Shown: piece after piece, positions 10,184 through 26,329 of the stretch
Numbering within the stretch: position 1 is the stretch's first letter
Layout of the letters: each line of letters starts with the position of its first letter
NCBI GenBank assembly: GCA_024277355.1
Contig: JAJRVL010000001.1
Location: 102,363-134,362, forward strand
DNA length: 32,000 bases
Direction: 5' to 3'
DNA from: an archaeon
GTDB lineage: Archaea > Iainarchaeota > Iainarchaeia > Iainarchaeales > 1-14-0-10-31-34
Position numbers and translations under genes: made by a program
Notes under the pieces: model-generated
Seen by the model: the letters and a program-made list of their open reading frames with translations, nothing else
Database searches by the model: none
Told to the model about the DNA's origin: nothing

Positions 10184-10216
10184 GGAGACGCAAAATGGTT
10201 TAATTCAGTCTGGTTT

Positions 10217-13200
10217 TTGCCTGAAAAAGGAGTGCATAATATTGAAATATTAATTAAAGTAAAAGAAAATGCAAGATTAGGACAGGAATTAAAATTAAAA
10301 TACAGAGCTTATGCTGATACAGGTTCAAGAACTGAAAGAAATCCAACAGATGTTTCAGTTACTTCTTCTGAAGAATTAAATGCTGCTGTAAAAGAAAAAA
10401 CTTTTACTGTAGGTGCAAATATTTTTTGTTCAAATGAATTCTGTTTTAGTGCAACAATTTTAGATTTAAAAGAAGACATAATCAAGAAAGTTTCAAATTC
10501 TTATCAAACAAAAATCCTACAGAAATATGAATTACAGTTTGATATATTGAATAATAATAAAACAAAAAAACATTATGATGCAAAAATTCAGTTAAAAAAT
10601 GAAAATGAAATGCTTAATTTTTTAGATTACAGAATAAGCAATGCTGATGCATTAACTAAAAGCGGAACAGCAGACAAAAAAGAATTACCTTGGGTTGAAT
10701 TAGGAGACTTTGATCCAAATAACCATATAACAGGAAAAACTGAATTTATTACTCAGGAAACAAAAACAGGAACAATAGATATTGTAATTGTTTCAAATCA
10801 GGAAATAGTATTTGAAAAAAACATTCAGATTGAAGTTCAGGCACCAAAAAACTTTTTAGTTGAATTTACTCCTGAAAAAATTCCTTCAACTACTTCATCT
10901 TTAATTGAGTTTACAGTATTTGACGAAGAAACAGGAATTGAAATTGAAAATGCTCAAATAAAAGTAATTGACAGGTTTGGAGACTTAATTGCAGGACCTG
11001 AATTAACCGACAGAGAAGGAAAAACAGAAATAATTATTTCAGGACAGGCTCCTGACACAAAATTAATTTTCAGGACAGAAAAACAGGAATACAATATTTC
11101 AGAATTAGAAGTTTTTACTGATAACTCAATAATTGAAATTACTCCTGATAGAATTGGAATTACATTAAACACTAAAACACAGAAGTCAAATGAATTTTCA
11201 TTTAAAATAAAAAACATATTAGAATTTGACTTGGAATTAACTTCACTTAAATTTACTGGAAACTTCAGAGATTTATTAAATAAAAAAGCAATGAATGCAT
11301 GGATGAATACAAATTACGGAAACATAATTATTCCTTCAAAAACAACAAAAGAAGTTAAAGTAAAAGGAATTTTATCTGATTATGCATTAAACAGAGAAGA
11401 AAGAGATATAGTTGAATTAGACTTGGAATTAGAGTTATCTAATGGAGAAGCTTTCTGGACAAAAGAAATTCCAGCAAAAATTTCAATTGGAATAGGCGGA
11501 GAAGTAGATGATCCAAATTGTTTAACTTTAGAACAAAGAACATGGAAAACAGGAACAGAAGGAAGCAAAGTAAAAATAGACTTTGGAATAGAAAATGCAT
11601 GTACAATTAACGGGAATCCAATTGAATTAAAAGACTTAGAAGCAAAAGTTAACTGGAATTCAAATCACATTGGAACTTATACTTTGACTTTTGAAGGAAA
11701 TCCAGTTGAATTAAGGTCAGCTTATTACAGGAAATTAACTGAAGAAATGGAAAACAGAAAATATACTGCAACACTTTCATTTGAACCAAACGGAGGAGTA
11801 AATGGAACAGCAAATGCAGAAATAATTTTAAGGGCAAGAAACCAGTTAGACGGAAAAGATGAATTTATTGAAGATAAAATTTCAACTGAAATAAAAATAA
11901 TTAACTTAAAAGACTGCATTAAGTTTTCTAATACAGACTTAAAAGTCAAAAAAGGAGAAATAACTTCATTTAATGTTTCAACTTTAGGTTGTGGAAGCAA
12001 TGTTTCTTTTACTTTTGATTCAGAATTAAAATTAAACAGTAAATCTTTAACTTTAGGTTCAGAAGATTCAACTGAAATAAAAATTGATTCAAGAGATGCT
12101 TTATCAGGGAGATATTTAATTAAAGCAGAAGCAAAAGGAAATTCTTTAGCAACAAAAACACAAATACAAAATATTTTTGTAACAGTATTTGAAGATTCCT
12201 GTGTTGCATTAAGCAGATATGAATTCGATATTTATGATTCAACTGAAAATGATTTTGATGGATATGACACAGCACAATTATACAATTACTGTGATGAAAA
12301 AGAATTATTAATTAAAGTTAACATGAAAGACTGGAGTTTAGCAATGAGAAATTCATTACTGCCTTCATTAATTGCATTTGGGACAGCAACAATAAGTGAT
12401 AAGAGCAGCGATAAAGCAGATACAACTGATAATTCAAATGGAGAAAAAGTATGGGCTGCAGAAAAAGAAAGCATTCCAACAACAGCATTTATAGGGTTGC
12501 CTTTTATTGGAGAAATTTCTCAGATTTTAAGCGGAGGAAACTTACTAAAAAGTGTTTTTGGTTCAGCTTCTCCATTTGAAATATTTGGAATAACTTTTGT
12601 TGCTTCAACTTTATATAATTACTTTAGTGCAGATGAAATTGGATTTAATGCAATAGCAGATAATATTACAGTCGATGACATTGTATTATTAGAAGGAATA
12701 AAATATACTACAGAAAAAATTGAAGTATTAGATGAAGAAATAGGATTAGTTATTGACGGTCCTTTTTCCTGCTTTGATTCAGTTTCAAATAAAACAATTG
12801 ACTGCTGGGATTTAACTTTTGTAAATGAAAATAAGTTGGTTCAGGAAGACGAATTTACTCCAATAATGAAAATACTTAAAACAAAATCAGCAGAACACTT
12901 CTGGAAAACAGATTACGACGGAGACTATTTCAATGAAAATAAAGGATTCCTTGAAAAAATGTTTAACGGAGCAGACTTAGACTTAAAAAAACCATTACAA
13001 GAAAAAACAAATAAACAAAATGAAATATTACAATACAATAAACTGCAATTTAATTCATTTAATCCAGAAGACACAACTTTAGGAAAACAAAATGCTTTTG
13101 GTTCATGTTCAATTGGAGAATTAACAGGAGAAACAGGAGTAAATGCTTTGCCTAAAATCAAATTAGACTGGAAATGGAATTCAATAACACAAAATTCATG

Positions 13201-14662
13201 CGATGAAAGTAATGAAAATTACATTTACTGTGATGCAACACAATTTTCAATTGAATTACTCAAAAAAATAAAAGAATTAACTGAAAGACTTGAAGCAGAT
13301 GCATTAACTTGTGAAACAAACTGCGTTTATTCAACAATTGAATTGCCTGCATTAATTGAAAACACAGAAAAAACAAGATCTGTTTCAGACAAAGAAAGAT
13401 TACTTGAATTAGTTTCATTTAATTCTTATTTAATTAAAGACGGTTATTCAAAAGACTTCCAGGAAGACTTCCATGATTATGCAGTTAATATTGATTTCTT
13501 TAATGCTCCAACTTCTTATTACAATCCAATAGAAGAAATAGGCCTTGGAGTTTACTTTAAAGACAATTCATTATTTGAATTCAATTACGAAGGCAGTCCT
13601 AACGCACCATTATCAGGACCAGGATTATACAACATTGAAATAGATATTACCTATAATGATTCTTCATGGAAATTATTCAATGGAAATACTCCTAATGCAA
13701 AAATAAAAATTAATTTAAGCAAACAAAGAGCAGCAAAACCAAACTCTCCATTATATTACCTGCCATTTAACGGAGAAATTGGACTTACATCAGATAATGG
13801 AAGAATAGGTTATGGATTAGATTACGAAAATTTAACAGGAAAACCAATAAGAATAAATGACACTACAAGAAGTATTAGAACAGTTCCTCTTTCAGTTGCT
13901 GATCCAGTAGAAGAATTAAGAACAATATATGAAACAGACTTCAAAAAATTAAATTTAGATGAAAGAGCAAAAATAATGCAGTTTGAAAGAACTTCAACCG
14001 GAACAAAATTAACTTATACTCCTTCAACTGCAACTCCAGTAATACTTGAAACAACAAGAAGTTCTGAAACACCAAAAGAAACAGCTTATGCATTTTATTT
14101 AATTACAGTTGACGGTCAGGCACAAAATGTTGGAAGCACAGGAATAACTAATTGGTCAGGAATAGAAGCAAACTGCAAAGACTTTGAAGACAGAAGTTCA
14201 TTAGATTACATGGAAACAGCAGACATGCATGGAATAAGCAGTGAAGCAAGCAATGCACAGATTACTGCAGATAAAGCAACAGCTTATGGATGGATATGGA
14301 ATAATCCAATTAGAACTGGAAAATTCTGGTTAGAAACATTAATTTTTAGTCCACTTGAATCAAAAACACAAATGCATTTAATTTCAGCAGCAAACAATGC
14401 AAAAATTTATACTCCATTAGATTCAGCAGTATTAACAGAGAATTCAAACTTAACTCCTTTTGTTGAATTAAATGGAGTAACAAGCTTGGAAATAACTTCC
14501 CTACAAAAAATACTTGATTTAGTTGAAACAAAAGATGTTTGTGTTGGAGGAATAGGAAATTCAAGTTATAGTTATTTCTTCTGGAATCCAGAAAAAGTTG
14601 ATGACTCAATTAATTCAGTTAAAAACAAGTTAAACGCAGAAGAAAACTGTATTCTGAAATAA
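10217..14662 (+). CDS. Giant surface protein paralog 2, C-terminal fragment (1481 aa from a TTG that is probably not a real start); same frame as 8105-10183
   Basis: It is in the same reading frame as the upstream fragment. The 11 codons between TAA 10181-10183 and 10217 read GDAKWFNSVWF, which aligns to GNAKWTNIIFN (giant 1) and AKAKWTNILWN (giant 3). There is no SD before 10217. The remainder is collinear with giants 1 and 3 to the C-terminus (..NCILK vs ..NCIG). Confidence 0.85.
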   Translation: MPEKGVHNIEILIKVKENARLGQELKLKYRAYADTGSRTERNPTDVSVTSSEELNAAVKEKTFTVGANIFCSNEFCFSATILDLKEDIIKKVSNSYQTKILQKYELQFDILNNNKTKKHYDAKIQLKNENEMLNFLDYRISNADALTKSGTADKKELPWVELGDFDPNNHITGKTEFITQETKTGTIDIVIVSNQEIVFEKNIQIEVQAPKNFLVEFTPEKIPSTTSSLIEFTVFDEETGIEIENAQIKVIDRFGDLIAGPELTDREGKTEIIISGQAPDTKLIFRTEKQEYNISELEVFTDNSIIEITPDRIGITLNTKTQKSNEFSFKIKNILEFDLELTSLKFTGNFRDLLNKKAMNAWMNTNYGNIIIPSKTTKEVKVKGILSDYALNREERDIVELDLELELSNGEAFWTKEIPAKISIGIGGEVDDPNCLTLEQRTWKTGTEGSKVKIDFGIENACTINGNPIELKDLEAKVNWNSNHIGTYTLTFEGNPVELRSAYYRKLTEEMENRKYTATLSFEPNGGVNGTANAEIILRARNQLDGKDEFIEDKISTEIKIINLKDCIKFSNTDLKVKKGEITSFNVSTLGCGSNVSFTFDSELKLNSKSLTLGSEDSTEIKIDSRDALSGRYLIKAEAKGNSLATKTQIQNIFVTVFEDSCVALSRYEFDIYDSTENDFDGYDTAQLYNYCDEKELLIKVNMKDWSLAMRNSLLPSLIAFGTATISDKSSDKADTTDNSNGEKVWAAEKESIPTTAFIGLPFIGEISQILSGGNLLKSVFGSASPFEIFGITFVASTLYNYFSADEIGFNAIADNITVDDIVLLEGIKYTTEKIEVLDEEIGLVIDGPFSCFDSVSNKTIDCWDLTFVNENKLVQEDEFTPIMKILKTKSAEHFWKTDYDGDYFNENKGFLEKMFNGADLDLKKPLQEKTNKQNEILQYNKLQFNSFNPEDTTLGKQNAFGSCSIGELTGETGVNALPKIKLDWKWNSITQNSCDESNENYIYCDATQFSIELLKKIKELTERLEADALTCETNCVYSTIELPALIENTEKTRSVSDKERLLELVSFNSYLIKDGYSKDFQEDFHDYAVNIDFFNAPTSYYNPIEEIGLGVYFKDNSLFEFNYEGSPNAPLSGPGLYNIEIDITYNDSSWKLFNGNTPNAKIKINLSKQRAAKPNSPLYYLPFNGEIGLTSDNGRIGYGLDYENLTGKPIRINDTTRSIRTVPLSVADPVEELRTIYETDFKKLNLDERAKIMQFERTSTGTKLTYTPSTATPVILETTRSSETPKETAYAFYLITVDGQAQNVGSTGITNWSGIEANCKDFEDRSSLDYMETADMHGISSEASNAQITADKATAYGWIWNNPIRTGKFWLETLIFSPLESKTQMHLISAANNAKIYTPLDSAVLTENSNLTPFVELNGVTSLEITSLQKILDLVETKDVCVGGIGNSSYSYFFWNPEKVDDSINSVKNKLNAEENCILK

Positions 14663-14745: not shown

Positions 14746-17700
14746 TTGGGATTAAAAGACATTTATTATTCAATAGAAGACAAATATTATTCTTTAATTG
14801 AAAAAACTCCTTTAACAAAAATAACTGATAAAATTGATTCTATTGTTCCTTCTTTTGCAGTATTAATTGCATTAATTATTTTAATTTCAGGTTTTTTAGT
14901 TTTGCCTTTTTTTGGCGGAGAAGAATATTCTTTTACTGTAACAATCAAAGATGAACAGGGAAAAAAACTTGAAGGAATAAAAGTAAATGTTTTTATCGGA
15001 GAAGAAAAACAAGTTTTAACAACAGATTCTGAAGGAAAAATTTCATTAAAAGCAAAAAAAGATTTAAAAATAAAAATAGAAATAGACAACAAAAAATATG
15101 AATTTATAGAAAAACAATTTAATTTAACTGAAAATGAATTAAGTTTTGAAGTTGAATTAAAGAAAATTGAGGCAGAACCCGCAGAAGCTAATTTGAAGTT
15201 TACAGACAAAAGCGGAAAATATATTACAGGAAAAGAAATAACAGTAAACTTAAGCTGCAGTAATTCTTCTATTAAACCTTCTCCTTCAACAGTAAAAGAT
15301 TCAGATAAAGACGGGGAAATAAAAATTAATATTCCTAAAGGATGCGGAAAATTAGTTATTAATTCAGTTGAAGTTGAAGGATATGAAAACTGGTTTGGAA
15401 CAATTAATTCAGCAGTAGAAACAATAAAATTAAATGCAATATTTTTAGGACAGGCATTAGGAGATTTAAAAGTAATCGTGGAAAATTCAAACGGAGAATT
15501 ATTAGATGACATTAAAGTAAGTTTAATGAAAGGGAACTCAAAAATAGATCAAAAGTATACAGTTGACGGAACCGCAGAATTTACCGGAATTGAAATTGGA
15601 TTTTATGACTTAAAATTAGAAGACGAAAAAAATGGGTTTGAACCAAAAAGAGTTTATTCAGTTGAAATAGAAAACGAAAAAATAAATGAAAGAACAGTTG
15701 AAATGCAGCCAACAAAAAAAGGCACACTAAAAATAAATATATTAGATAAAGAAACTAATTCAAAAATAAAAAATTCTGAAGTAATAATAGAAAATGAATT
15801 AGGAGAAATAATAGGGGAAAGAAACACAGGAGAAACAGGAAATACAATTGAATTTGGATTATATTCCACTGAAAAACTAATTATTAAAGCAAGAGCAGAA
15901 AAATATTTGCCTGAAAAAACTGAAATTAACCCTGAAACCCAAAAAGAAGTTGAAATTAAATTAGAAAAAATTACTGCAGAAAACAGCGGTAAATTAAAAA
16001 TAATTTTAGTTGATGAAGACAAAAAAAACATTGCTAATGCAAGAGTAATGCTAAAAGATGAAGACGGCAGTCTGCTTACTGAGTATCCTGAAAAGTTTTC
16101 TGATGCAGAAGGAATAGTTGAATACACAGGAATAAAAAAAGGAATTTATTTTGCTTATGCAGAAAAATATCCTGCTTCTGGACTTTCAGACTCATTTGAA
16201 ATAAAATTAACAGAAAAAACTGAAATTGAATTAAAATTAATCATAGGAACAGCAAAAATTGAACTGCAAACAATAACAAAAGACGGAGAATTCATTCCAA
16301 ATACAAGAGTTAAAGTAAAAAGCATTGATGAAGAAAAAACTTATACTTTAAATTCAGAAGGAAAAACTACTTTAGAAATAAAAGCAGATAAAAGAGTTTT
16401 TTTTGAATTCTTTGATTCAAAAAATGTTTATTCAAAATACACTACAAAAGAATATCAGTTACTTCCAAAGAATTATTTTATTACTGCAACAATGCCTGAA
16501 CAAAATTTAGGAGAAAATTTATGGATTGAATTAAAAGGCGTTTATTTAAATGACACAAAACAAACTATTCTGGCAGGAGGAAAAAAATACAAAGCAGTAT
16601 TAGAATTATTTGTTCCAGAAAACGAATCATATGAAGAAGCAGGAATTCATTTCAGGACAGGAGAAGATGAAAACCCATTTATAGAAAATGATTTAGTTTG
16701 GATAGAAAAAATTAATGTTTCAAACGCTTCAAAAATAAAAGGAACAACATGGAACCCGAAAAAAGGGCAGCAAACTGATTTTGATTCAGATAATTCAGCT
16801 TCAAGCAATGCAAAAGCAAAATGGACAAATATTTTATGGAACAATGTTGAACCAGGAGTATATGAAGCAGAAATAGAACTAAGAATACGAGAAGGAACAG
16901 GAGATAAAGAAAAAGTAAGTTTAAGTTTTAGGGCATGGGGAAAAGGAAGAAACTATTATTACTTTCCGGCAGACAATGAATTAGGTTCAAGTTCTTCCAC
17001 TACAACAAAACAAGGATTATATGCTGAAACATTCCAGAAAGAATTTAACACAGAAGAAGAAGTTCCTGTTTGCATGGAAAACAATTTATGTTTGTCAAAA
17101 CAAAGATTAGAAGATAAAACAAAAGAACCATTTATCATACAAAAAAAACTTCCGTTTGAAGCAGGAGCAAACGGAAACTATGAATATAGTTTTAAAATAG
17201 TGAATAATTCTCAGTCAATTTATGATGAACCTGAATTATGGATTGAATTAATTGATGCAACAGGAAATTTAACTGAAGAAGCAGAAATAAGTTATTATGA
17301 AATTAAAACTTCAGAAGGAAATTCAAAAACAAAAGAAGTTAATTCAAATGAAACACAAGGAATTTCTTTAGGTTTATATGGAAGGCAGTCAGTAATTGAA
17401 GGAATTATTGGAATAAAAACAAAAAATACAGGAAATACTTTTGTTAACTTAAAAATATTTGAAAAAGTAAACAATGGGTCAAATAAAATTTTTGACAATG
17501 AAAAGAAAACAGAAATAAAAATTAAATCAGGAAAAGCATTAGAAATAGAATTAATGCCTGAATTAATTCCTGCTTTTGCTGAAACTCCTGCAACAATAAT
17601 AATAAAAGATTTAGATGGAATTGAAGTAGAACAAGCAAGAGTAAAATTAAATGTAATAGAAGAAGGAAACAGAAAAATAACTATTGAAGAAAAACAAACA

Positions 17701-20700
17701 AACAGGTTTGGTGAAACAGAATTTTTAATCCCAGTATTAGAACCAAACACTAAAATTGAATTTATTGCAGAAAAATTTGAATTTGAAACAGCAGTAAAAC
17801 AAGTAATTTTATCAGAAAACGTTTTTGTTGTTGAACCTGAAACAATAAATGAAACTTTAAGCCAGAGAAATAACCCTGAAATAACAAAAGAAATTACAAT
17901 AAAAAATTTACTTGAAACAGACTTAAAAATAGAAAAAATAGAATTAATTAATGAAACAGGCTATTTTGAAGAGTTTATTGAAATGGGTTTAATAAATGCA
18001 GTATTTGATTCATTTAATGGTACAATAATTAATTCTTATCCACAGGAATTTAATGGACAATTATTTAAAGTAAAATTACAGTCAGGTTTACCTGAAGGTT
18101 ATACTAGTTCCGCTAAAGGAATAATGACAATAAAATTAAAGAATGAAAGATTTAATGCAAGTTATTCAAAAGACATTAAAGTAGAATTAAATTTAGGGCA
18201 AGGCCAAGCAATAAATAATGCTTCTTGTCTGGAAATAGAAAACGGAGAAGCAATTTTTTCAAGGCAGACAACTTCTAATCCTGTTCAATTATCTTATAAA
18301 ATAGTAAATAATTGTATTGATGATTCCGGAGCAGGAATTAAAGTAAGAAATTTAAAAGCAAAAATTGAATGGACAGACAAAAAAGGAACTGTTTCATTGC
18401 AGATGAAAGGAAGAACAGCAGACTTAAAGACAACTTTATTCACTGACTTTTCTTCAGTTGTAAATGAAAGAGAAGAAATGCTTGTTTTGCTTACTTATAC
18501 TCCTGATGCAGAATTAACCGGAGAAGAAGGACAAACCGAATTTAACGTAATAATTGAAGCAGAAATAAATACTTCTTCAGGAATACAAATAATTAGAACT
18601 AATCCGCCTTTAATTAAAGGAACAATTGGAAATGTTGAATTACTTGAATGCATTGTATTTGACCCTAAACCAAAAATTGGAACAATAATTGAATCTGGAA
18701 GCGAAGAAGCAAACTTTTCAATAACAAACAACTGTGGAATGGAAATAGAATTAAGGTTTTGTAAAGGAGACACAAGATGCACTGGGGGAACTGAAGGAGG
18801 AATAATAGTTAAACCAGATACAATAGTTTCTTCATTAAAGATTGGAACAGGAAATAATAATGCAGAACAAGTAACAGTCAAAAGAACAAGTATTCCTGGA
18901 ATTTATGGAATAACAATTGAAGCAAAAAATGCAGGGGAAGCATGGAGAGAAATTTCAGTTTATGATGTTTTAGTTAAACCTAATGCAGGACATTATTTTA
19001 GTTTAGGAGATTATACAATTAAAGTCCCTGAAAAAAATAATCCGGATATAATTGAATTATATAATAACAGATTATTCACTAATGTTGATGTTGATGCAAG
19101 TGATTGTGTATGGGAAACAGCACAAGAAAAAAGTTTTGGAAGAAGCCTGCTTGAATTTGGCGGTTTAGCTTCAGGAGGAGCAGGCACTGCATTGCTTGTC
19201 ATGATGGCTTATAGCGGTCCTGCAGGATGGCTTACTGCAGGAATAGGCGCAGTAATTGGATTGGTTGTTTGTTTATTTGCCTGTTCTGACCCATGCGATG
19301 AAAGAACAACTGACACTTTACAGGATTACTTAATTAATTTAAGCGGAACAGGCGTTATTATGTCTAAAAGAAATTCTCCAAATCTTGCCGGAATTGAATT
19401 AACAATTAATGGAATTTCTACTGGTTACAGTTCTGAAGCAGCAATATTAGATTATACAAATGGCCCTCCAGGAAAAGAAACTCTTCCATTGACTTTTACT
19501 AAAATAACAGATTCATATAATAACATTAAGCCGACTTATGGAATTTTAACAATTAATGCAACAGAACATAATCAATTAACAGAATTAAATGTTCCAGAAA
19601 ATAATGATGACAGAGCAGGAGATTTAGTGCTTTATGGTTTGCCTGATAAATATTCAAATGGAAATGCAGATTATAATAATTTAACTGAAATTCAAAGAAA
19701 ATTCCATGTAAGAGCAATAACAAAAAGATTTATTGAAGAAATTCCTCCATTGCAGAGAAGTCTGGATTGTGTTAAACCAAACGGAGAAATTGGAGGAATA
19801 GGAGAACAAGCTTTACCTAAAATTAAATTAAACTGGGATTGGGATAAAATTGCATTTAATGAATGTGAAGAAGGAAACGAAAATTATATTTACTGTGATT
19901 CCTCTCAGTTTTCAGTAATGTTAAATAAAAGAATACACAAAATAGATGAATTTATGCAGAAAAACAATTTTAGTTTTTCATGTCCAGTAAATCCAGTAAC
20001 AGCAATAAATGAAGTACAATGGAATGCATCAAGAACAAACATAATTGAAAACGGAAAAATTGGAATAAAAGAAGTTCAAATTGAAACAAACAAGGAAACA
20101 GGAATAACAACAGTTTTAGCAGTAATAGAAAATAAAACAAGTGTTTCAATGAATTTAAATCCAGAAATAAATATTACTATTCCTGAAGGAATTGAATTTA
20201 CAGGAGAAAGTTCTTGTGTTACTTCAACAGGGAATATTGCATCAAACTCAACAAAAGAAGTTTCATGTGAATTTGAATTACCTGAAACAAATGAATTATA
20301 TAAAATAGAAATAAAACATATTTCCAAAACAGACTTTGATGCTTTAAGTGAAGAAGAACAAGGAAAATACAATCAAAACATATTCAATATAAATTACAGA
20401 TTAAATCAAATAAGTTCATGTTGGGCTGGAACAACAACAGGAATTTATTCAGGTTTATTTTCATTAAACCTTTATTTAAATAAATTAGATCCAAAATTTG
20501 GAGAATATGTAACTCAAAACGAAGTAAGAATTAATGGGCATTCAGTCCAGACTGACAGTCAGGAAATAATTAATGTAATAAAAGAAATCAAAAAATTAAG
20601 TCATTTTAATGTTTATATGATGAAAGATGGATTTAGTGAAGACTTTAAACAAGACTTTGCAGATTATTATGAAAACACTGCTTTTTTGGAAGGAGCAACA

Positions 20701-21852
20701 TGGTTTACTGATTCAGATTCAACAACAAAAAACAATGAATTAGCTGAATATTATAAACAAGGATTAATTTCATTTAACAGAAAATACTTAAATCAAGAAC
20801 AATTTGAATTGCCTGAACCAGGATTATATAGAGTTGATTTAAGCATTGATTACACTGGAGATAAATGGAATTTATTTGATTCAGAAGGAAACCCTAAAGC
20901 TAAAATAAAAGTTGAATTTACAAGATTACCTTCACCGACTCCAAACTCAATTTTTTATTATTTACCGTTTGACGGAAAAATAGGAGAAGAAAATTTCGCT
21001 TATCACAGAATAGGTTATGGAACAGGATACACTAATTTAAGGGAAGAACAATTAAAGATTAATTCTCAGACAATTCTTTCTTCAAGTCAGGCTTCAAGTA
21101 ATCCATTAAATGAAATGACAATAGAAAAAAGCGATTTATTAACTGAAATGAATTCAGAAGAAGAAACAAGAGGAAGCATTTTGAATTTAAATTATAATGG
21201 AGATGAACTAAACTTAAAGTTTTATCCTTCAAAAGCAACTCCAGTTGCATTAAAAATGCACCATGTGCAGACAACAGAAAATGATGAATTTAGTTATTAT
21301 TATGGAATGCAGGAATCAAATTTGCCTGTGACTGCAGGAAACAGATTAGCTTTTTGGAAAGGAATGGGTTCCTGCAGGGACTTTGAAGGAAAGTTTGTTC
21401 AGCAATACAAACAATGGGATTCAAAATATTCAAGTGAATCACAAAACTTATATGAAGTCAACTGGAATAATGCAATTAAAGGAGGCTCAACTTATTTGAA
21501 AACCGTGTTATATACTCCAATTGAAAGAAATATTTCATTAAAGGTTAATGAAACAGGTTCACTGCAAAATTCAAGTTTATTTACTTCAAATGAAGAAAAT
21601 TCTCCTTTGGTTTCATTAAATGGAATAAGCGGAATGGAATTTAATAACGCAAATCAGGGAACTTCAAGTTATTTGCAGAATATTGAAAATGTATTTGAAT
21701 TAGTTAGAAATGGAAATGCATGCATTTCACAAAATGATGTTTCAATGAATATTTACTGGAATGAAGCAGAATTATTCAGAACACAAGGATTAACTAAAAG
21801 TCTAAACGAATTAGAAGATTCATTGATTGCGGGAACAAACTGCATTGGATGA
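14746..21852 (+). CDS. Giant membrane-anchored surface protein, paralog 3 (2368 aa), TTG start
   Basis: The TTG start is supported by homology of MGLKDIYYSIEDKYYSLIEKTPLTKITDKIDSIVPSF to the N-termini of giants 1 and 2, and by GAAGGGA (14734-14740) 5 nt upstream. It has a TM helix AVLIALIILISGFLVLPF and CarboxypepD_reg-like repeats, e.g. GKLKIILVDEDKKNIANARVMLKDEDGSLL...AEGIVEYTGIKKGIYFAYAEKY. An internal Gly/Ala-rich hydrophobic segment lies at nt 19147-19290. Confidence 0.93.
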   Translation: MGLKDIYYSIEDKYYSLIEKTPLTKITDKIDSIVPSFAVLIALIILISGFLVLPFFGGEEYSFTVTIKDEQGKKLEGIKVNVFIGEEKQVLTTDSEGKISLKAKKDLKIKIEIDNKKYEFIEKQFNLTENELSFEVELKKIEAEPAEANLKFTDKSGKYITGKEITVNLSCSNSSIKPSPSTVKDSDKDGEIKINIPKGCGKLVINSVEVEGYENWFGTINSAVETIKLNAIFLGQALGDLKVIVENSNGELLDDIKVSLMKGNSKIDQKYTVDGTAEFTGIEIGFYDLKLEDEKNGFEPKRVYSVEIENEKINERTVEMQPTKKGTLKINILDKETNSKIKNSEVIIENELGEIIGERNTGETGNTIEFGLYSTEKLIIKARAEKYLPEKTEINPETQKEVEIKLEKITAENSGKLKIILVDEDKKNIANARVMLKDEDGSLLTEYPEKFSDAEGIVEYTGIKKGIYFAYAEKYPASGLSDSFEIKLTEKTEIELKLIIGTAKIELQTITKDGEFIPNTRVKVKSIDEEKTYTLNSEGKTTLEIKADKRVFFEFFDSKNVYSKYTTKEYQLLPKNYFITATMPEQNLGENLWIELKGVYLNDTKQTILAGGKKYKAVLELFVPENESYEEAGIHFRTGEDENPFIENDLVWIEKINVSNASKIKGTTWNPKKGQQTDFDSDNSASSNAKAKWTNILWNNVEPGVYEAEIELRIREGTGDKEKVSLSFRAWGKGRNYYYFPADNELGSSSSTTTKQGLYAETFQKEFNTEEEVPVCMENNLCLSKQRLEDKTKEPFIIQKKLPFEAGANGNYEYSFKIVNNSQSIYDEPELWIELIDATGNLTEEAEISYYEIKTSEGNSKTKEVNSNETQGISLGLYGRQSVIEGIIGIKTKNTGNTFVNLKIFEKVNNGSNKIFDNEKKTEIKIKSGKALEIELMPELIPAFAETPATIIIKDLDGIEVEQARVKLNVIEEGNRKITIEEKQTNRFGETEFLIPVLEPNTKIEFIAEKFEFETAVKQVILSENVFVVEPETINETLSQRNNPEITKEITIKNLLETDLKIEKIELINETGYFEEFIEMGLINAVFDSFNGTIINSYPQEFNGQLFKVKLQSGLPEGYTSSAKGIMTIKLKNERFNASYSKDIKVELNLGQGQAINNASCLEIENGEAIFSRQTTSNPVQLSYKIVNNCIDDSGAGIKVRNLKAKIEWTDKKGTVSLQMKGRTADLKTTLFTDFSSVVNEREEMLVLLTYTPDAELTGEEGQTEFNVIIEAEINTSSGIQIIRTNPPLIKGTIGNVELLECIVFDPKPKIGTIIESGSEEANFSITNNCGMEIELRFCKGDTRCTGGTEGGIIVKPDTIVSSLKIGTGNNNAEQVTVKRTSIPGIYGITIEAKNAGEAWREISVYDVLVKPNAGHYFSLGDYTIKVPEKNNPDIIELYNNRLFTNVDVDASDCVWETAQEKSFGRSLLEFGGLASGGAGTALLVMMAYSGPAGWLTAGIGAVIGLVVCLFACSDPCDERTTDTLQDYLINLSGTGVIMSKRNSPNLAGIELTINGISTGYSSEAAILDYTNGPPGKETLPLTFTKITDSYNNIKPTYGILTINATEHNQLTELNVPENNDDRAGDLVLYGLPDKYSNGNADYNNLTEIQRKFHVRAITKRFIEEIPPLQRSLDCVKPNGEIGGIGEQALPKIKLNWDWDKIAFNECEEGNENYIYCDSSQFSVMLNKRIHKIDEFMQKNNFSFSCPVNPVTAINEVQWNASRTNIIENGKIGIKEVQIETNKETGITTVLAVIENKTSVSMNLNPEINITIPEGIEFTGESSCVTSTGNIASNSTKEVSCEFELPETNELYKIEIKHISKTDFDALSEEEQGKYNQNIFNINYRLNQISSCWAGTTTGIYSGLFSLNLYLNKLDPKFGEYVTQNEVRINGHSVQTDSQEIINVIKEIKKLSHFNVYMMKDGFSEDFKQDFADYYENTAFLEGATWFTDSDSTTKNNELAEYYKQGLISFNRKYLNQEQFELPEPGLYRVDLSIDYTGDKWNLFDSEGNPKAKIKVEFTRLPSPTPNSIFYYLPFDGKIGEENFAYHRIGYGTGYTNLREEQLKINSQTILSSSQASSNPLNEMTIEKSDLLTEMNSEEETRGSILNLNYNGDELNLKFYPSKATPVALKMHHVQTTENDEFSYYYGMQESNLPVTAGNRLAFWKGMGSCRDFEGKFVQQYKQWDSKYSSESQNLYEVNWNNAIKGGSTYLKTVLYTPIERNISLKVNETGSLQNSSLFTSNEENSPLVSLNGISGMEFNNANQGTSSYLQNIENVFELVRNGNACISQNDVSMNIYWNEAELFRTQGLTKSLNELEDSLIAGTNCIG

Positions 21853-21876: not shown

Positions 21877-21884
21877 TTTTAAAC
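21877..21884 (+). promoter_or_regulatory. TATA-like box TTTTAAAC, exactly 22 nt before the ATG of the first small membrane-protein gene (candidate leaderless promoter)
   Basis: The sequence reads attaTTTTAAACtacaaaaaacattatttaatttATG, with no SD in the 22-nt spacer. The same box and spacing occur at 29703 and 31166. Confidence 0.4.
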
Positions 21885-21906: not shown

Positions 21907-22236
21907 ATGTTTCCTGAATTAAGTTTTCTTTTTATTGGCGAATTTATTTCAGACATCGGTTTTGCATTAAAAATTTTTGTTTTAATTGCAATTGTTTCTT
22001 TTATTAAAAGTCATTTAGGTTCAGGGCCTTTTGCAGTAATTTTAATGGGTTTAACTGCTTATTTTGTTTTGTTTGATCAATGGAAATTATTTGGCGGAAT
22101 TTATGTGTTATATGTATTGTTTTTGTTTGGAGTAGGGCATTTAATGGTGGATTTCTTTTTTGTTGCACAGCATGCTCCTGGAGATGAAATGAGCCATATT
22201 CCAAGCCATAATATGCCTAAAGGAAGGATGCATTAA
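21907..22236 (+). CDS. Small polytopic membrane protein 1 (109 aa, ~3 TM), unknown family
   Basis: Hydrophobic helices IGFALKIFVLIAIVSFI, GPFAVILMGLTAYFVLF and LFGGIYVLYVLFLFGVGHLMVDFFFV. It has the loop motif KSHLGSGP shared with the next ORFs and a His-rich C-tail. It is the first of five back-to-back ORFs. Confidence 0.75.
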   Translation: MFPELSFLFIGEFISDIGFALKIFVLIAIVSFIKSHLGSGPFAVILMGLTAYFVLFDQWKLFGGIYVLYVLFLFGVGHLMVDFFFVAQHAPGDEMSHIPSHNMPKGRMH

Positions 22237-22237
22237 A

Positions 22238-22570
22238 ATGAATGAAAAAGGCGGATTAATTCTGATTATTTTTGGCTTATTTGTCATTGTAGGCTTATTG
22301 CCTTGGATTTTAATGAGCATAGTCCCGCAAGCAAAAATATTAATTCAATTAATCCTTGTTTTTGCGATTTATACTGCAGTAAGAGGCTATCTTGGATCTG
22401 GAACTTTAACTTTAATTATTTCAGGAGTATTAATTTACATTTTAGTAATAAAATATGCTGCATTTTCTTCTGCTGCTTATATGTATATGGTTGTTGTTCA
22501 GGTTGGAGTCAGTTCAATGCTTATCTGGGGAACAAATTTCTTTTTAATTAAGTTTGGGAGAAAACATTAA
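22238..22570 (+). CDS. Small polytopic membrane protein 2 (110 aa, ~4 TM), paralog of protein 1
   Basis: It starts 1 nt after the previous stop (TAAaATG), with AGGAAGGA at 22221-22228, 9 nt upstream. It carries the motif RGYLGSGT followed by LTLIISGVLIYILV. Confidence 0.78.
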   Translation: MNEKGGLILIIFGLFVIVGLLPWILMSIVPQAKILIQLILVFAIYTAVRGYLGSGTLTLIISGVLIYILVIKYAAFSSAAYMYMVVVQVGVSSMLIWGTNFFLIKFGRKH

Positions 22571-22581
22571 AGAGTGATAAA

Positions 22582-22833
22582 ATGGATTTAATGGTTTTTT
22601 CTGCTTTGGCTTTGGATTTAGAAATAGTTTTATCATTATTTTTTCTTGTATGGGTTTATGCTTGGGCAAAAGGAAAATTAGGCAGTCCAAAACTGGCAAT
22701 AATTTTTGCAGCAATAATTGTTTATTTGACTGTATCACAACACAGAGAATTAATCTGGTTAGGAGTGTTATTATTCTTATTAGCAACATTTGGAAAAGAA
22801 TTACTTGAAAAATTTAAGATTTATGGTGAATAA
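22582..22833 (+). CDS. Small polytopic membrane protein 3 (83 aa, ~3 TM), same family
   Basis: GAGTGAT at 22572-22578 lies 3 nt before the ATG. It carries the motif KGKLGSPK followed by LAIIFAAIIVYL. The N-terminus MDL... is shared with protein 4. Confidence 0.75.
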   Translation: MDLMVFSALALDLEIVLSLFFLVWVYAWAKGKLGSPKLAIIFAAIIVYLTVSQHRELIWLGVLLFLLATFGKELLEKFKIYGE

Positions 22834-23142
22834 ATGGATTTATTTAATTTAATTTTAGCAGTAATTTTTTTAATGATGGCCACGCAATGGGGCGAACCCT
22901 GGCTGATTGTGGGTTTATTATTAATTTTAGTTGTAGCAATGAAAGACTTTAAGTCAACAATAATTCTTTTTGTTGCAGCAATAGCATTATTTTTAATAAA
23001 AGACAATTTACAGGAATATGCTTTATTTGTAATAATTGGATTAATTTTATTAGCATTAATTTTAGGCAAAAAAACAGAAGAAGGGGGCCAATCCGAAATG
23101 TTTAATCCAGGAGGATTAGGCGGATTAATGGAAGGAATGTAA
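22834..23142 (+). CDS. Small polytopic membrane protein 4 (102 aa, ~4 TM), divergent member of the same family
   Basis: The ATG abuts the previous stop (TAAATG), and GGTGA at 22825-22829 lies inside the upstream gene, which suggests translational coupling. It has four hydrophobic helices and a Gly-rich C-tail NPGGLGGLMEGM. Confidence 0.75.
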   Translation: MDLFNLILAVIFLMMATQWGEPWLIVGLLLILVVAMKDFKSTIILFVAAIALFLIKDNLQEYALFVIIGLILLALILGKKTEEGGQSEMFNPGGLGGLMEGM

Positions 23143-23144
23143 AA

Positions 23145-23516
23145 ATGAAATTAAGTTATTTACTTGTATTAGTTTTATTTTTCTTTTATTTTTATTTTAA
23201 TGGACCTTATTTTATTGCTTGGATTATTGGAATACTTATTTTATTAATTGTAATTTCAAATCTTTTTTCTTCTACAACCGGAATTGCAAAAGCAACAGGA
23301 AAAGAATTACTCAGAGATGTTGAGTCAGACATGGAAAAAGCTAATCCTACAACTCCAAATAAAGAATACTTAAAAGAAATAATAAAAGAAACCGGAAGGA
23401 AAACAGGAGAAGCATTAGCTCCTGAAAATTACACTTATAAAAACAAAAATCTTTGGGAAAAAATAGGGCAGGGAACAAAAAATTTCTTTAATGGGTTAAA
23501 AAAAATATTTGAATAA
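23145..23516 (+). CDS. Small membrane protein 5 (123 aa): N-terminal hydrophobic hairpin plus a charged soluble C-terminal half
   Basis: It starts 2 nt after the previous stop, with GAAGGA at 23131-23136. The N-terminus is LLVLVLFFFYFYF..YFIAWIIGILILLIVISNLF, followed by a K/E-rich tail. Confidence 0.75.
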   Translation: MKLSYLLVLVLFFFYFYFNGPYFIAWIIGILILLIVISNLFSSTTGIAKATGKELLRDVESDMEKANPTTPNKEYLKEIIKETGRKTGEALAPENYTYKNKNLWEKIGQGTKNFFNGLKKIFE

Positions 23517-23598: not shown

Positions 23599-24186
23599 TT
23601 ATTTTTTTGTTAAAAGTTTTCTTTCAGTTTCAAGGATTTTTTTCATAATGTCATGCATTGCATTAATTTTTGCTTTAAAATCCTTAAAATCATTTTTTAT
23701 TTCAGAAACATCTTTTTCTATAGCATTAATTTCTTTCTTTAATTCATTTAAAGAACCTGCATCAATTTTTCCATGAACTGAATCAATTTTTTTATGTAAT
23801 TCATTTAATTTGTCATCTTGTTCTTCAAGCTTTAAGTCAGTTGACTGTTGTTTTAATACATCAACTCCTTCTTTTTCAGCTAAATGTTCTTTAATTTTAT
23901 TTGATGTCTGTGTTATAACTGAATCAATATCATATTCTTGTATTGAAGGGGTTTCAGTTTCAGAAACTTTTTCATTTATTACTGCTTCTTTTTCTGGAAT
24001 TTCTGCAATATTTTTTCCTGTTTCTTTCGGTTTTACTCCGGAAGTTCCTTTAGCAGTTAAAAGTAATTCTTCTGATTCTTGTTCAGTTAATCCTAAATCA
24101 CTTAAAGTACTTAGGATTATTTTATCTTCTATACCTGAATTAAGCATTTTTTTTATTGTTTTAATTACTACTTCTTTGTTAACCAT
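23599..24186 (-). CDS. Coiled-coil protein (195 aa), unknown function
   Basis: The minus-strand ORF has proteome-like K/E/D-rich composition and heptad-like C-terminal two thirds (LNELHKKIDSVHGKID...LKKEINAIEKDVSEIKNDFKDFKAKINAMHDIMKKILE). The overlapping plus-strand ORFs (23576-23776, 23810-24199) are S/F-rich antisense artefacts. Confidence 0.72.
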   Translation of the reverse strand: MVNKEVVIKTIKKMLNSGIEDKIILSTLSDLGLTEQESEELLLTAKGTSGVKPKETGKNIAEIPEKEAVINEKVSETETPSIQEYDIDSVITQTSNKIKEHLAEKEGVDVLKQQSTDLKLEEQDDKLNELHKKIDSVHGKIDAGSLNELKKEINAIEKDVSEIKNDFKDFKAKINAMHDIMKKILETERKLLTKK

Positions 24187-24303: not shown

Positions 24304-25803
24304 ATGGATTTTAGAGTAAGAAACGGGCCATGGGAACAAATTTTTTCAGGAAACATGGAAGGATTTGAAATAGAAATTCATTCAAATCCAAAAAGCTTAA
24401 TTTTAGTTACAGTAATAGAAAAAGAAAATGAAGAAATACAAGGAGCAGTAATAGAAATATATAAAGTGTTTTTTGCTGAAGGCAGCATTGAAGATTTTAT
24501 TGAAACTCTTCCAAAAGAAGCAACAGTTTTATTAAAACATGAACCAAAAGAAACACTAAAATTTATGTTATTAAGTTCATCTCCAAGTTATGTTAAATAT
24601 GAAGAAAATGTTTTTTGCGATGAAGCAGAAGATTTAATAGAAAAAATTAATACTTCAAGTTCAATGATGAAAGATTTTTCCAAAGCATATGACCTTCAAT
24701 TAACTGAATTAGATAAGTCTCCTGAAAGAATCAAAAGCTCCTTTTTTTCACAGTCATTAATTGCACCATTACTTATTCCAAAAGGAATGGAAAATAAAAA
24801 TTCAGCTGAATCAACTCTTCAAATAACAGGAAAAGGAACAGTAATGCTGGGTTTAACTAAAGCAAATACAATGATTAAAGAACCATTGGAATTAATGATG
24901 AAAACCACAATTTTTGGTTCAACTCCAAAAGACAGAAAACATGTAATTCATTTAATTGCAGAAGGAGCATTACTTGATAATACTCCTGTGTTGATTTTTG
25001 ACAGAGATAAATCTTTTATCGGCTTAAACAAGCCAAATCCAGATGAAAAAATATTGAAAGAGTATGGAATTGATTTAGAGCCAATGGGGTTTCCAATAAA
25101 GCATTTTACAAGAGAAGAATTTAACATTGACTTAAATTTAATCAGCATTAAAGGATTATTAGAATTAATTGGAATGAAAGAAGGCGAAGAACAAAATATT
25201 ATTTCAAAATTAATTAAAGACACAAAACCAAAATCAATAAAAGAATTAATTGAAGCAGCAAAAAAACTTCCTACAAGAGATGAATCAAAAATAACAAACA
25301 AATACCGTTCAATCAGAATACTAAGTTTAATTGACAACAAATACAAGGGATTATTTAACGGAGAAAACAACATAAAAGAAATAACTAAAAGTTCAGGAAA
25401 AACAATTGGAAGAGTAGGAATAATTCATTTAGAAGGATTAGATGAAACAGCTTTAAGTTTATTAATTCACAGCATGCTTAAAGGAATTTATTTAGAATAC
25501 AGTAAATCAAAACAAAAAATTAATTCAATGATTTTTTTGCCTGAAATAAAACCGATTCTTTACTCAAAAAACAACAGTATTATTACAAAAGAAATAATTG
25601 AATTATTAGACAAACTTAAATCAGTTGGAATTGGTTTTGCTTTAAGCTCAGACAGGCCAATTGACTTAAGAAAAGAAATAATGAAAATCTCTGAAGCAGA
25701 AATATTTTTAATTAACAGAAATGACGTTGGAGTAAAAGTAGCTAAAAGCAAACAATTCAGAATAAAATTAAATCCAACTTTAAGTGCCTGTGAAGAAAAA
25801 TAA
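24304..25803 (+). CDS. HerA/DUF87-like P-loop NTPase homolog with degenerate catalytic motifs (499 aa) and a novel ~170-aa N-terminal domain
   Basis: Collinear matches to the HerA/DUF87 layout: KTTIFGSTPKDRKHVIHLIAEG..PVLIFDRDKSF vs the h-G-x-T-G-S-G-K-S ... viDphgEY pattern; GRVGIIHLEGLDETALSLLIHSMLKGIY vs iiDLSgl..e....vv; SMIFLPEIKPIL vs hhhhEEAH; LKSVGIGFALSSDRPIDL vs GRKyGvgl.lvsQrPs.l. The family call comes from recalled motif patterns, not from a search. Confidence 0.6.
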   Translation: MDFRVRNGPWEQIFSGNMEGFEIEIHSNPKSLILVTVIEKENEEIQGAVIEIYKVFFAEGSIEDFIETLPKEATVLLKHEPKETLKFMLLSSSPSYVKYEENVFCDEAEDLIEKINTSSSMMKDFSKAYDLQLTELDKSPERIKSSFFSQSLIAPLLIPKGMENKNSAESTLQITGKGTVMLGLTKANTMIKEPLELMMKTTIFGSTPKDRKHVIHLIAEGALLDNTPVLIFDRDKSFIGLNKPNPDEKILKEYGIDLEPMGFPIKHFTREEFNIDLNLISIKGLLELIGMKEGEEQNIISKLIKDTKPKSIKELIEAAKKLPTRDESKITNKYRSIRILSLIDNKYKGLFNGENNIKEITKSSGKTIGRVGIIHLEGLDETALSLLIHSMLKGIYLEYSKSKQKINSMIFLPEIKPILYSKNNSIITKEIIELLDKLKSVGIGFALSSDRPIDLRKEIMKISEAEIFLINRNDVGVKVAKSKQFRIKLNPTLSACEEK

Positions 25804-25849: not shown

Positions 25850-26329
25850 TTACTTTTTTGTTTTTTTCTTTTTTGTTTTTGGAGCACTTGATTTATTATT
25901 TGAAATTAAATCTTTCACTTGGCCTAAAGTAACAAACTCTAAGGGATTAATTGCTTCAATAATATATTTTAATTCCTTTAAGTCTTCAGATTTAGCAAAA
26001 GAAGAATTCATTTTATTTAAATCAGATTTAATTTCATTTAACATAAAATCATTTTGCTTGACTTTTTCCTCTAATTCTTCAACTAAATCATTTACTTCAG
26101 TTGAAACTCCTTCAGACTGAACAGAAGCAACAGGTTTTTTTTGTTCAAAAGCCTTTAATTTTTTGTTTAAAATAATAAAATTTCTTCCAAGAATTTTTTC
26201 ATTTCTAACCAAATAATTCATTTTCTGGCTTAACAATAAAACAGAACTGTTTAATGCCCTGATATCCCGAATAATATCTTCTAAAGTATAACCTGAACTC
26301 TTTCCTTTTTCAGCTCGTCTATGAGGCAT
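25850..26329 (-). CDS. Coiled-coil protein (159 aa) with a poly-Lys C-tail, unknown function
   Basis: GGAG (reverse complement of ctcc in 26336-26340) lies 6 nt upstream of the ATG. Heptad-like segments include LVEELEEKVKQNDFMLNEIKSDLNKMNSSF. It ends APKTKKKKTKK. Confidence 0.75.
   Translation of the reverse strand: MPHRRAEKGKSSGYTLEDIIRDIRALNSSVLLLSQKMNYLVRNEKILGRNFIILNKKLKAFEQKKPVASVQSEGVSTEVNDLVEELEEKVKQNDFMLNEIKSDLNKMNSSFAKSEDLKELKYIIEAINPLEFVTLGQVKDLISNNKSSAPKTKKKKTKK

Follow-up and report, generated by a model that had tools for sequence, protein, structure and literature searches.

What is the task of five very small membrane proteins that an archaeon encodes head to tail between a row of giant surface-protein genes and the gene for a HerA-like protein? 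The question is raised by a 32,000-nucleotide stretch of genome assembly GCA_024277355.1 (contig JAJRVL010000001.1, positions 102,363 to 134,362; C10:102363-134362 in our numbering), which comes from the phylum Iainarchaeota (Diapherotrites, DPANN) and which we call the window. The genome amounts to 1.13 Mb and is 96% complete. The window has a G+C content of 28%, encodes an archaeal PolB and a type II methionine aminopeptidase (MetAP) according to Pfam and NCBIfam scans, and contains no tRNA or Rfam matches. We term the small genes P1 to P5, the giants G1 to G3, and the two coiled-coil genes on either side of the HerA-like gene CC1 and CC2 (Table 1). A preliminary description of this DNA took P1-P5 for an operon that includes four paralogs and suggested that they form the membrane platform of a system made up of the giants and the HerA-like protein. 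We find that the P1-P5 families are near-universal in, and restricted to, the phylum Iainarchaeota. To judge from their sequences and gene neighborhoods, the five proteins probably supply the membrane portion of a surface apparatus of these cells that has not been described before.

The lengths of the five open reading frames (ORFs; 109, 110, 83, 102 and 123 aa) and the junctions between them were given exactly in the preliminary description, as the ORF list and the sequence confirm. P1 and P2 are joined by TAAaATG, P3 and P4 by TAAATG and P4 and P5 by TAAaaATG, with an 11-nt spacer between P2 and P3. Purine-rich, Shine-Dalgarno-like strings are present ahead of P2-P5, inside the upstream genes, where they had been reported. 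All five products are dominated by hydrophobic helices in hydropathy analysis, in agreement with their earlier designation as membrane proteins. Because orthologues of each gene keep the same order in dozens of genomes, P1-P5 are real genes, well beyond chance ORFs; this order was found across 30 short loci and across 20 loci of 20 kb.

P2 was matched in 57 of 61 relatives and in all 32 high-quality genomes among them. A P2 profile detected the family in 188 of the 215 Iainarchaeota genomes, and in 57 of the 58 of high quality. The corresponding P4 profile matched 39 of the 43 genomes of at least 92% completeness, and a direct hidden Markov model scan recovered a weak P4 at the locus in 2 of the 4 genomes that had been missed. 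Searched against 1.84 billion representative proteins, the P2 profile returned only 68 clusters at E <=1e-3, and the six matches from its weak tail that were inspected (P0079-P0088) are P1-family paralogs. Nearly all named records that carry the cluster bear the label Iainarchaeum, Diapherotrites, Forterrea or unclassified archaeon, the complete genome of Forterrea multitransposorum being one of them; the exceptions are three records labelled Micrarchaeota and two with bacterial labels. Two P2-bearing contigs, L077 (JAFCBY010000074.1) and L108 (JAFCCG010000009.1), sit in bins labelled Candidatus Falkowbacteria and Chloroflexi, and are probably mis-binned archaeal contigs.

Relationships among the five families were judged with hhalign by comparing family alignment with family alignment (profile-profile). 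P1 and P2 matched each other with a probability of 97.8-98% (E about 1e-12), P1 and P3 with 95-96% (95.7% in one comparison; E about 1e-8), and P2 and P3 with 86% (E 5e-6). The loop-plus-helix strings quoted in the preliminary description are found in P1, P2 and P3. P4, which had been counted as a fourth paralog on the strength of a degenerate loop (KDFKS) and an MDL start in common with P3, did not match P1, P2 or P3 significantly (1-2% probability; 2.4% against P3). We therefore reject P4 as a member of the family and regard the two resemblances as coincidental; the paralogs number three. P5 is unrelated to P1-P4 in these comparisons, and it had rightly been set apart for its hydrophobic hairpin and charged tail.

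P1-P3 have in common a core that consists of a helix, a [KR]G.LGSGP loop, a short helix and a long helix. An AlphaFold2 model of P2 as a single chain, built from 34 sequences, reached a predicted local distance difference test (pLDDT) score of 88.6 and contains helices at residues 3-28, 30-52, 56-72 and 74-107. The [KR]G pair falls at residues 34-35 in P1, 49-50 in P2 and 30-31 in P3, in each case after conserved transmembrane (TM) helices. By the positive-inside rule, P1-P3 would have their basic loops and C-termini in the cytoplasm, and P1 and P3 would point their acidic N-termini outward. In a maximum-likelihood tree, P2 and P3 each form one clade (support 100/99 and 100/95), both clades extend to further orders of the phylum, and just two changes, the lowest number possible, account for the three paralog labels on the tree. 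This pattern argues that the triplication is older than the radiation of the phylum, and we regard P1-P3 as an ancient triplication on this phylogenetic evidence. The source genome carries exactly three members of the family.

Neither Pfam nor NCBIfam gave a significant match for any of P1-P5, and scans of the five proteins with PADLOC and PHROGs gave nothing. The P2 profile matched no sequence in the PDB, and a Foldseek search of PDB folds with the P2 model gave two matches, both with E >6, so that no fold could be assigned. The author of the preliminary description did not recognize the family, and neither do the libraries or structures that we searched. We found no description in the literature of a cluster of P1-P5, giants and a HerA-like gene; the arCOG01314-type predicted archaeal secretion or remodelling systems have different components from this cluster (Makarova et al. 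2015, PMC5898192).

We compared the organization of the locus across 16 genomes, drawn from different families, in joined loci of 35-52 kb. Twelve of them have the order G1-G2-G3, P1-P2-P3-P4-P5, CC1, the HerA-like gene, CC2, PolB and usually MetAP, with CC1 and CC2 on the opposite strand to P1-P5 and the HerA-like gene. From the giants to CC2, this order is retained in more than 12 families. Four genomes show rearrangements. The complete Forterrea genome has the giants with P1-P2 at 276 kb, and P3-P4, a gene of 128 aa, CC1 and the HerA-like gene at 585 kb, between the genes for ribosomal protein L15e and TFB; the two halves are 310 kb apart. Genome G037 has the giants with P1-P2 at 478 kb and P3-P4-P5-CC1-HerA-like-CC2-PolB at 340 kb, a distance of 138 kb. 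The block from P3 to CC2 is inverted as one unit in G034, and 4.5 kb has been inserted between P2 and P3 in G049. All four events, which look independent of one another, break the row of small genes at P2/P3 only, and after the breaks P1-P2 stay with the giants and P3-P5 with the HerA-like gene.

Intergenic distances tell of the same division. Median gaps, taken over 54-83 loci, are 12 nt for P1-P2, 10.5 nt for P3-P4 and 2 nt for P4-P5 but 71 nt for P2-P3, and the P2-P3 gap exceeds 100 nt in 26 of 74 loci. Since breaks, long gaps and insertions all fall at P2/P3, the small genes make up two tight sub-units: P1-P2, which go with the giants, and P3-P4-P5, which go with CC1 and the HerA-like gene. 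Where the preliminary description saw a single five-gene operon, the gap statistics indicate two tightly coupled units and no obligatory unit of five.

PolB and MetAP were considered as members of the system and rejected, as breakpoints separate them from the block in Forterrea and G034. CC1 and the HerA-like gene accompany P3-P5 in these moves; PolB is left behind in Forterrea, and a breakpoint separates CC2 from PolB in G034. Outside the order of the source genome, G208 keeps P1-P2-P3-P4-x-CC1-HerA-like-CC2-PolB together, and its sole detectable giant lies on another contig. A divergent metagenomic contig, L144, has the order giant, P1-P5', CC1, HerA-like gene, giant.

The HerA-like protein has the HerA fold without the Walker motifs of an ATPase. 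Its profile matched HerA in the PDB (4d2i, E 2e-5), and its single-chain AlphaFold2 model (pLDDT 83) gave only HerA as top Foldseek matches (4d2i_B, E 5.8e-13, probability 1.0); the 50 listed matches are HerA or HerA-containing defence complexes, and none is named VirB4. DUF87 (PF01935) was matched at 31.1 bits against a cut-off of 23.2. The HerA fold with its N-terminal barrel and DUF87 core is thus present, but the catalytic Walker residues of the HerA clade are not: no GxxxxGK[ST] occurs in any of the 16 aligned members, and an invariant Pro replaces the Asp of Walker B in all 16 (hhhhP instead of hhhhDE). A 1036-aa DUF87 paralog of the HerA family, encoded on contig C6 of the same genome, keeps GARGSGKS and LFIDEA. 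By these motifs the HerA-like protein of the cluster is catalytically dead. A word-indexed search with its profile returned close relatives only, and is uninformative on other phyla.

The giants G1-G3 of relatives are each about 2200-3250 aa long, and giants take up 2-3% of an Iainarchaeota genome of ~1.1 Mb. They carry no ATPase domain, and their cytoplasmic part is only ~35 residues. This N-terminal peptide, ~35 aa before a single TM helix, reads ...KDIYYSLEDKYY..LDKID..IPVYK.IDPID..VPSF-TM; its conservation extends over G1, G2 and G3 and over different families, and it looks like a docking or targeting motif. It lies within the first ~150-200 residues of G3, a region covered by most of the matches from other orders. 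In the source genome it is confined to five proteins, all of them giants of ~2000-2440 aa. A word-indexed search with G3 residues 1-120 found close relatives only and is likewise uninformative on other phyla. In most of the 15 other genomes the orthologue of G2, which is interrupted in the window, is one continuous ORF (2200-3250 aa); Forterrea is another genome in which the gene is split. The interruption in the window could reflect a nonsense mutation, a mistake in assembly or read-through.

How might these parts fit together? The giants reach the cytoplasm by a peptide and a helix only, and the HerA-like and coiled-coil proteins are soluble; P1-P5 are for this reason the obvious candidates for a link. 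We consider there to be about an even chance that P1-P5 are membrane subunits that couple the giants to a cytoplasmic scaffold of dead HerA-like protein and coiled coils. In such an arrangement the membrane core would be a hetero-oligomer of P1, P2 and P3, with their conserved basic [KR]G.LGSGP loops towards the cytoplasm. P4, with four TM helices and a Gly-rich tail, and P5, with its hairpin, would complete the core, P5 also offering a cytoplasmic helical tail. The core would link the N-terminal peptide and TM helix of the giants to a soluble ring of the HerA-like protein and to CC1 and CC2, and it could serve to anchor, assemble or position the giants. We infer the topology, the physical assembly and the role towards the giants from the character of the proteins and the conservation of their genes. 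The earlier idea of a membrane platform for a giant/HerA-like system thus agrees with the conserved order of the block and with the joint travel of its parts after breaks, while its four-paralog component has to be reduced to three. A more specific version, in which a pseudo-threefold ring of P1-P2-P3 would dock the N-terminal peptides and TM anchors of the three giant paralogs onto a nucleotide-free HerA-like hexamer braced by CC1 and CC2, seems to us unlikely. If true, it would represent the base of a new ATP-independent archaeal surface or host-contact organelle, a split counterpart of the nanohaloarchaeal SPEARE proteins discussed below. A strict pairing of three small paralogs with three giants was rejected as a rule, since the source genome has five giants with the motif and G208 a single detectable one despite its P1-P3.

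Several observations weigh against a coupling role. The association of P1-P5 with the giants and the HerA-like protein is read from genes, the numerical match of three paralogs to three giants is not strict, and the likeness to SPEARE is one of architecture, taken from a published domain description. In the remaining orders of the phylum P1-P5 have no giants next to them, so the link to the giants is weaker than that to the HerA-like gene. Part of the synteny could be inertia, as PolB and MetAP are also kept beside the block in most genomes. The same facts, together with the near-universal presence of the families in the phylum, would be expected if P1-P5 formed a self-contained essential complex of housekeeping character, acting for instance as an ion channel, in transport or in membrane homeostasis, that is merely syntenic with its neighbors in a rarely rearranged region. 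A complex of that kind, however, should not split repeatedly at one point with its halves remaining beside different neighbors, nor would CC1 and the HerA-like gene be expected to accompany P3-P5 when PolB is left behind; similarity to any transporter family is also lacking. We therefore think this explanation rather improbable, if worth keeping in mind. The breakpoints, all between P2 and P3, would also fit two separate functions, with P1-P2 as anchor, insertion or assembly partners of the giants and P3-P5 as the tether of an unrelated HerA-like/coiled-coil machine that might act in division or chromosome handling, next to PolB. The long P2-P3 gap, into which a PIN-like pair, a gene of 1405 aa or an additional TM ORF has been inserted in relatives, fits such a division. 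Yet P1-P3 are paralogs with the same conserved loop, which suggests one type of contact for all three, all five genes occur together in most genomes and in other orders, and on contig L144 the HerA-like gene, too, has a giant gene after it. Two functions thus appear doubtful to us, and coupling of the giants to the HerA-like scaffold is the reading that we prefer.

Two further explanations concern the nature of the small proteins themselves. The [KR]G pair, followed by one residue and a hydrophobic helix, superficially resembles archaeal prepilin sites, and P1-P3 might accordingly be prepilin-like proteins cut by a prepilin peptidase at a class III signal peptide. The motif, however, lies 30-50 residues into the proteins, after one or two conserved helices and with no short charged leader before it, conservation of the upstream helix is no lower than in the remainder of the protein, and no pilin or archaellin family was matched in Pfam or NCBIfam; such processing is very improbable. 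P1-P5 could also be strongly diverged members of a known small-transporter or housekeeping family, such as SMR, the small Mrp/Mnh subunits or SecG/SecE-like proteins. What similarity there is consists of single sub-threshold matches, the only one to Mrp/Mnh being MNHE with P3 (E 0.29; 11 bits, where the cut-off is 27) and another being SecG with P4 (E 0.38). The P2, P4 and P5 alignments were scanned member by member (34, 33 and 13 sequences, 80 in all), and the matches were scattered and below threshold, with no family that recurs. No match to SMR (Pfam Multi_Drug_Res) was found for P1-P5 or for any of the 80 members, the window encodes no large MnhA/D antiporter subunit, and P2 resembles no PDB sequence or fold. 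Descent from one of these families is thus hardly likely. The preliminary description had named a match to SMR or Mrp/Mnh, or a lack of conservation or adjacency in relatives, as what would speak against it; no such match was found, and the genes are both conserved and adjacent in relatives.

In Nanohaloarchaeota, the giant surface proteins of the SPEARE type (Hamm et al. 2019, PMC6642349; analysed again by Reva et al. 2023, PMC10266531) offer the closest parallel known to us in the architecture of the parts. A single chain of theirs unites an ectodomain, a TM helix, a VirB4/TraG-like ATPase and a coiled coil (Reva et al. 2023, PMC10266531). Both systems are found in DPANN archaea and combine, in jointly encoded parts, a giant ectodomain rich in Ig-like domains, a single TM anchor, a cytoplasmic P-loop module of the FtsK/HerA/VirB4 superfamily and coiled coils, and both have been proposed to be host-contact or surface apparatus. 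SPEARE is, however, one polypeptide with a conserved ATPase, whereas in Iainarchaeota the parts are encoded by separate genes, the giants are anchored N-terminally, and the TM-less HerA-like protein is closest to HerA and lacks Walker motifs. The five small membrane proteins, an addition in Iainarchaeota, have no described counterpart. We take SPEARE as an architectural precedent within DPANN for the association of a giant, a TM helix, a HerA-superfamily module and a coiled coil, and the Iainarchaeota locus could be its "split" counterpart with an inactive ring.

The Ced DNA import system of Crenarchaeota consists of the small membrane proteins CedA, CedA1 and CedA2 and of CedB, an active HerA/VirB4-like ATPase. 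It resembles the present cluster in that an archaeon encodes a protein of the HerA clade together with several polytopic membrane proteins of very small size. By its description, which is what we compared, Ced differs in the activity of CedB, where all 16 Iainarchaeota members lack Walker A and B, and in that neither giants nor coiled-coil proteins are known to be part of it. Small membrane proteins are also clustered with a protein of the FtsK/HerA superfamily in the core of type IV secretion systems (VirB3/VirB6/VirB8 with VirB4), which offer the idea of a membrane platform beneath a surface structure. Pfam and NCBIfam, however, gave no match to VirB3, VirB4-N (PF03135) or VirB6; the fold is closest to HerA rather than VirB4, the ATPase is dead, and the locus is a single-copy core locus and not mobile. 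The S-layers of Sulfolobales are built of two components, SlaA and SlaB, with a separate membrane anchor. Here too dedicated small partners keep large surface proteins at the membrane, but the giants of Iainarchaeota carry their own TM anchor, no relation in sequence or fold was found, and S-layer anchoring is not known to involve a HerA-like cytoplasmic component.

DPANN archaea are thought to live attached to hosts, and beyond Nanohaloarchaeota and Nanobdellota almost nothing is known of their contact apparatus. For the giants of Iainarchaeota, conserved small membrane proteins are now defined as candidate partners: three ancient paralogs and two unrelated proteins, arranged in two sub-modules. 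They comprise three new protein families without detectable relatives. Together with the dead HerA ring, two coiled-coil proteins and the 70-residue N-termini of the giants, the five small proteins make up a putative minimal parts list that may serve structure prediction, heterologous reconstitution and cryo-electron tomography. The locus also provides a clear case of a HerA-fold protein that is retained throughout a phylum without ATPase motifs.

Table 1. Features of the window and related features elsewhere. Unprefixed coordinates are positions in the window; the L prefix denotes loci of relatives, and G000 is the source genome, with C9 and C10 as its contigs.
Feature	Coordinates	Strand	Description
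G1	757..8088	+	2443 aa; N-terminal peptide and one TM anchor, then Ig-like/CarboxypepD_reg domains
G2	8105..14662	+	Split by one in-frame stop into 692 aa and 1481 aa
G3	14746..21852	+	2368 aa; N-terminal peptide and TM anchor as in G1; a further hydrophobic segment, residues 1491-1518
TATA-like box TTTTAAAC	21877..21884	+	22 nt 5' of the P1 ATG, within the 54-nt gap after G3
P1	21907..22236	+	109 aa; three TM helices; acidic N-terminus; KSHLGSGP loop; conserved DFFFV motif; three-paralog family
P2	22238..22570	+	110 aa; paralog with four helices (one extra, N-terminal); RGYLGSG loop between helices 2 and 3
P3	22582..22833	+	83 aa; shortest paralog; WAKGKLGSPK loop; conserved C-terminal FGKEL motif
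P4	22834..23142	+	102 aa; about four TM helices; conserved Gly-rich C-tail QPE..P.GYGGL.GG; unrelated to P1-P3
P5	23145..23516	+	123 aa; N-terminal hydrophobic hairpin, then charged helical tail of ~80 aa (hydropathy, alignment)
CC1	23599..24186	-	195 aa; small helical N-domain, acidic linker, coiled coil; always between P5 and the HerA-like gene
HerA-like protein	24304..25803	+	499 aa; no TM segment; HerA fold; Walker A and B lost
CC2	25850..26329	-	159 aa; coiled coil; always after the HerA-like gene
Two further giants with the peptide	G000:C10:93524-100750; C9:103568-109681		Identified by the N-terminal motif
P2/P3 insertions in relatives	L034:9206-9992; L032:10368-11046; L035:10315-10757; L140:5405-9960		

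The TATA-like box TTTTAAAC upstream of P1 is likely the putative promoter of the P1-P5 unit itself, giving a leaderless or short-leader transcript, although TATA-like strings are common at 28% G+C. P5 is the least conserved of the five small proteins; its tail, which probably faces the cytoplasm, carries the motifs DMEKAK and G.GAKNF...KLF. The second hydrophobic segment of G3 is Gly/Ala-rich (window positions 19216-19299) and lies ~1450 residues past the N-terminal anchor; hydropathy revealed no comparable second segment in G1 or G2.

The P2/P3 junction is a hot spot for insertions in relatives, and the inserts vary in content. That of G032 encodes a PIN-like protein and a small partner, possibly a toxin-antitoxin pair; G006 has an extra TM ORF of 117 aa, G036 a basic protein of 128 aa and G049 a secreted-type protein of 1405 aa. 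Among the representative proteins, P0086, an apparent three-repeat match to P2, proved to be a low-complexity repeat protein and not a fusion. A second entry, the predicted protein P0042 (348 aa), has ~270 N-terminal residues of the HerA-like family joined to the last ~75 residues of P2; either a true gene fusion or an assembly chimera formed where an inversion broke the locus could explain it. The PolB encoded beside the cluster in G020 (L033:15883-19650) is 1255 aa long, compared to ~800 aa elsewhere, which suggests an intein or other insertion.

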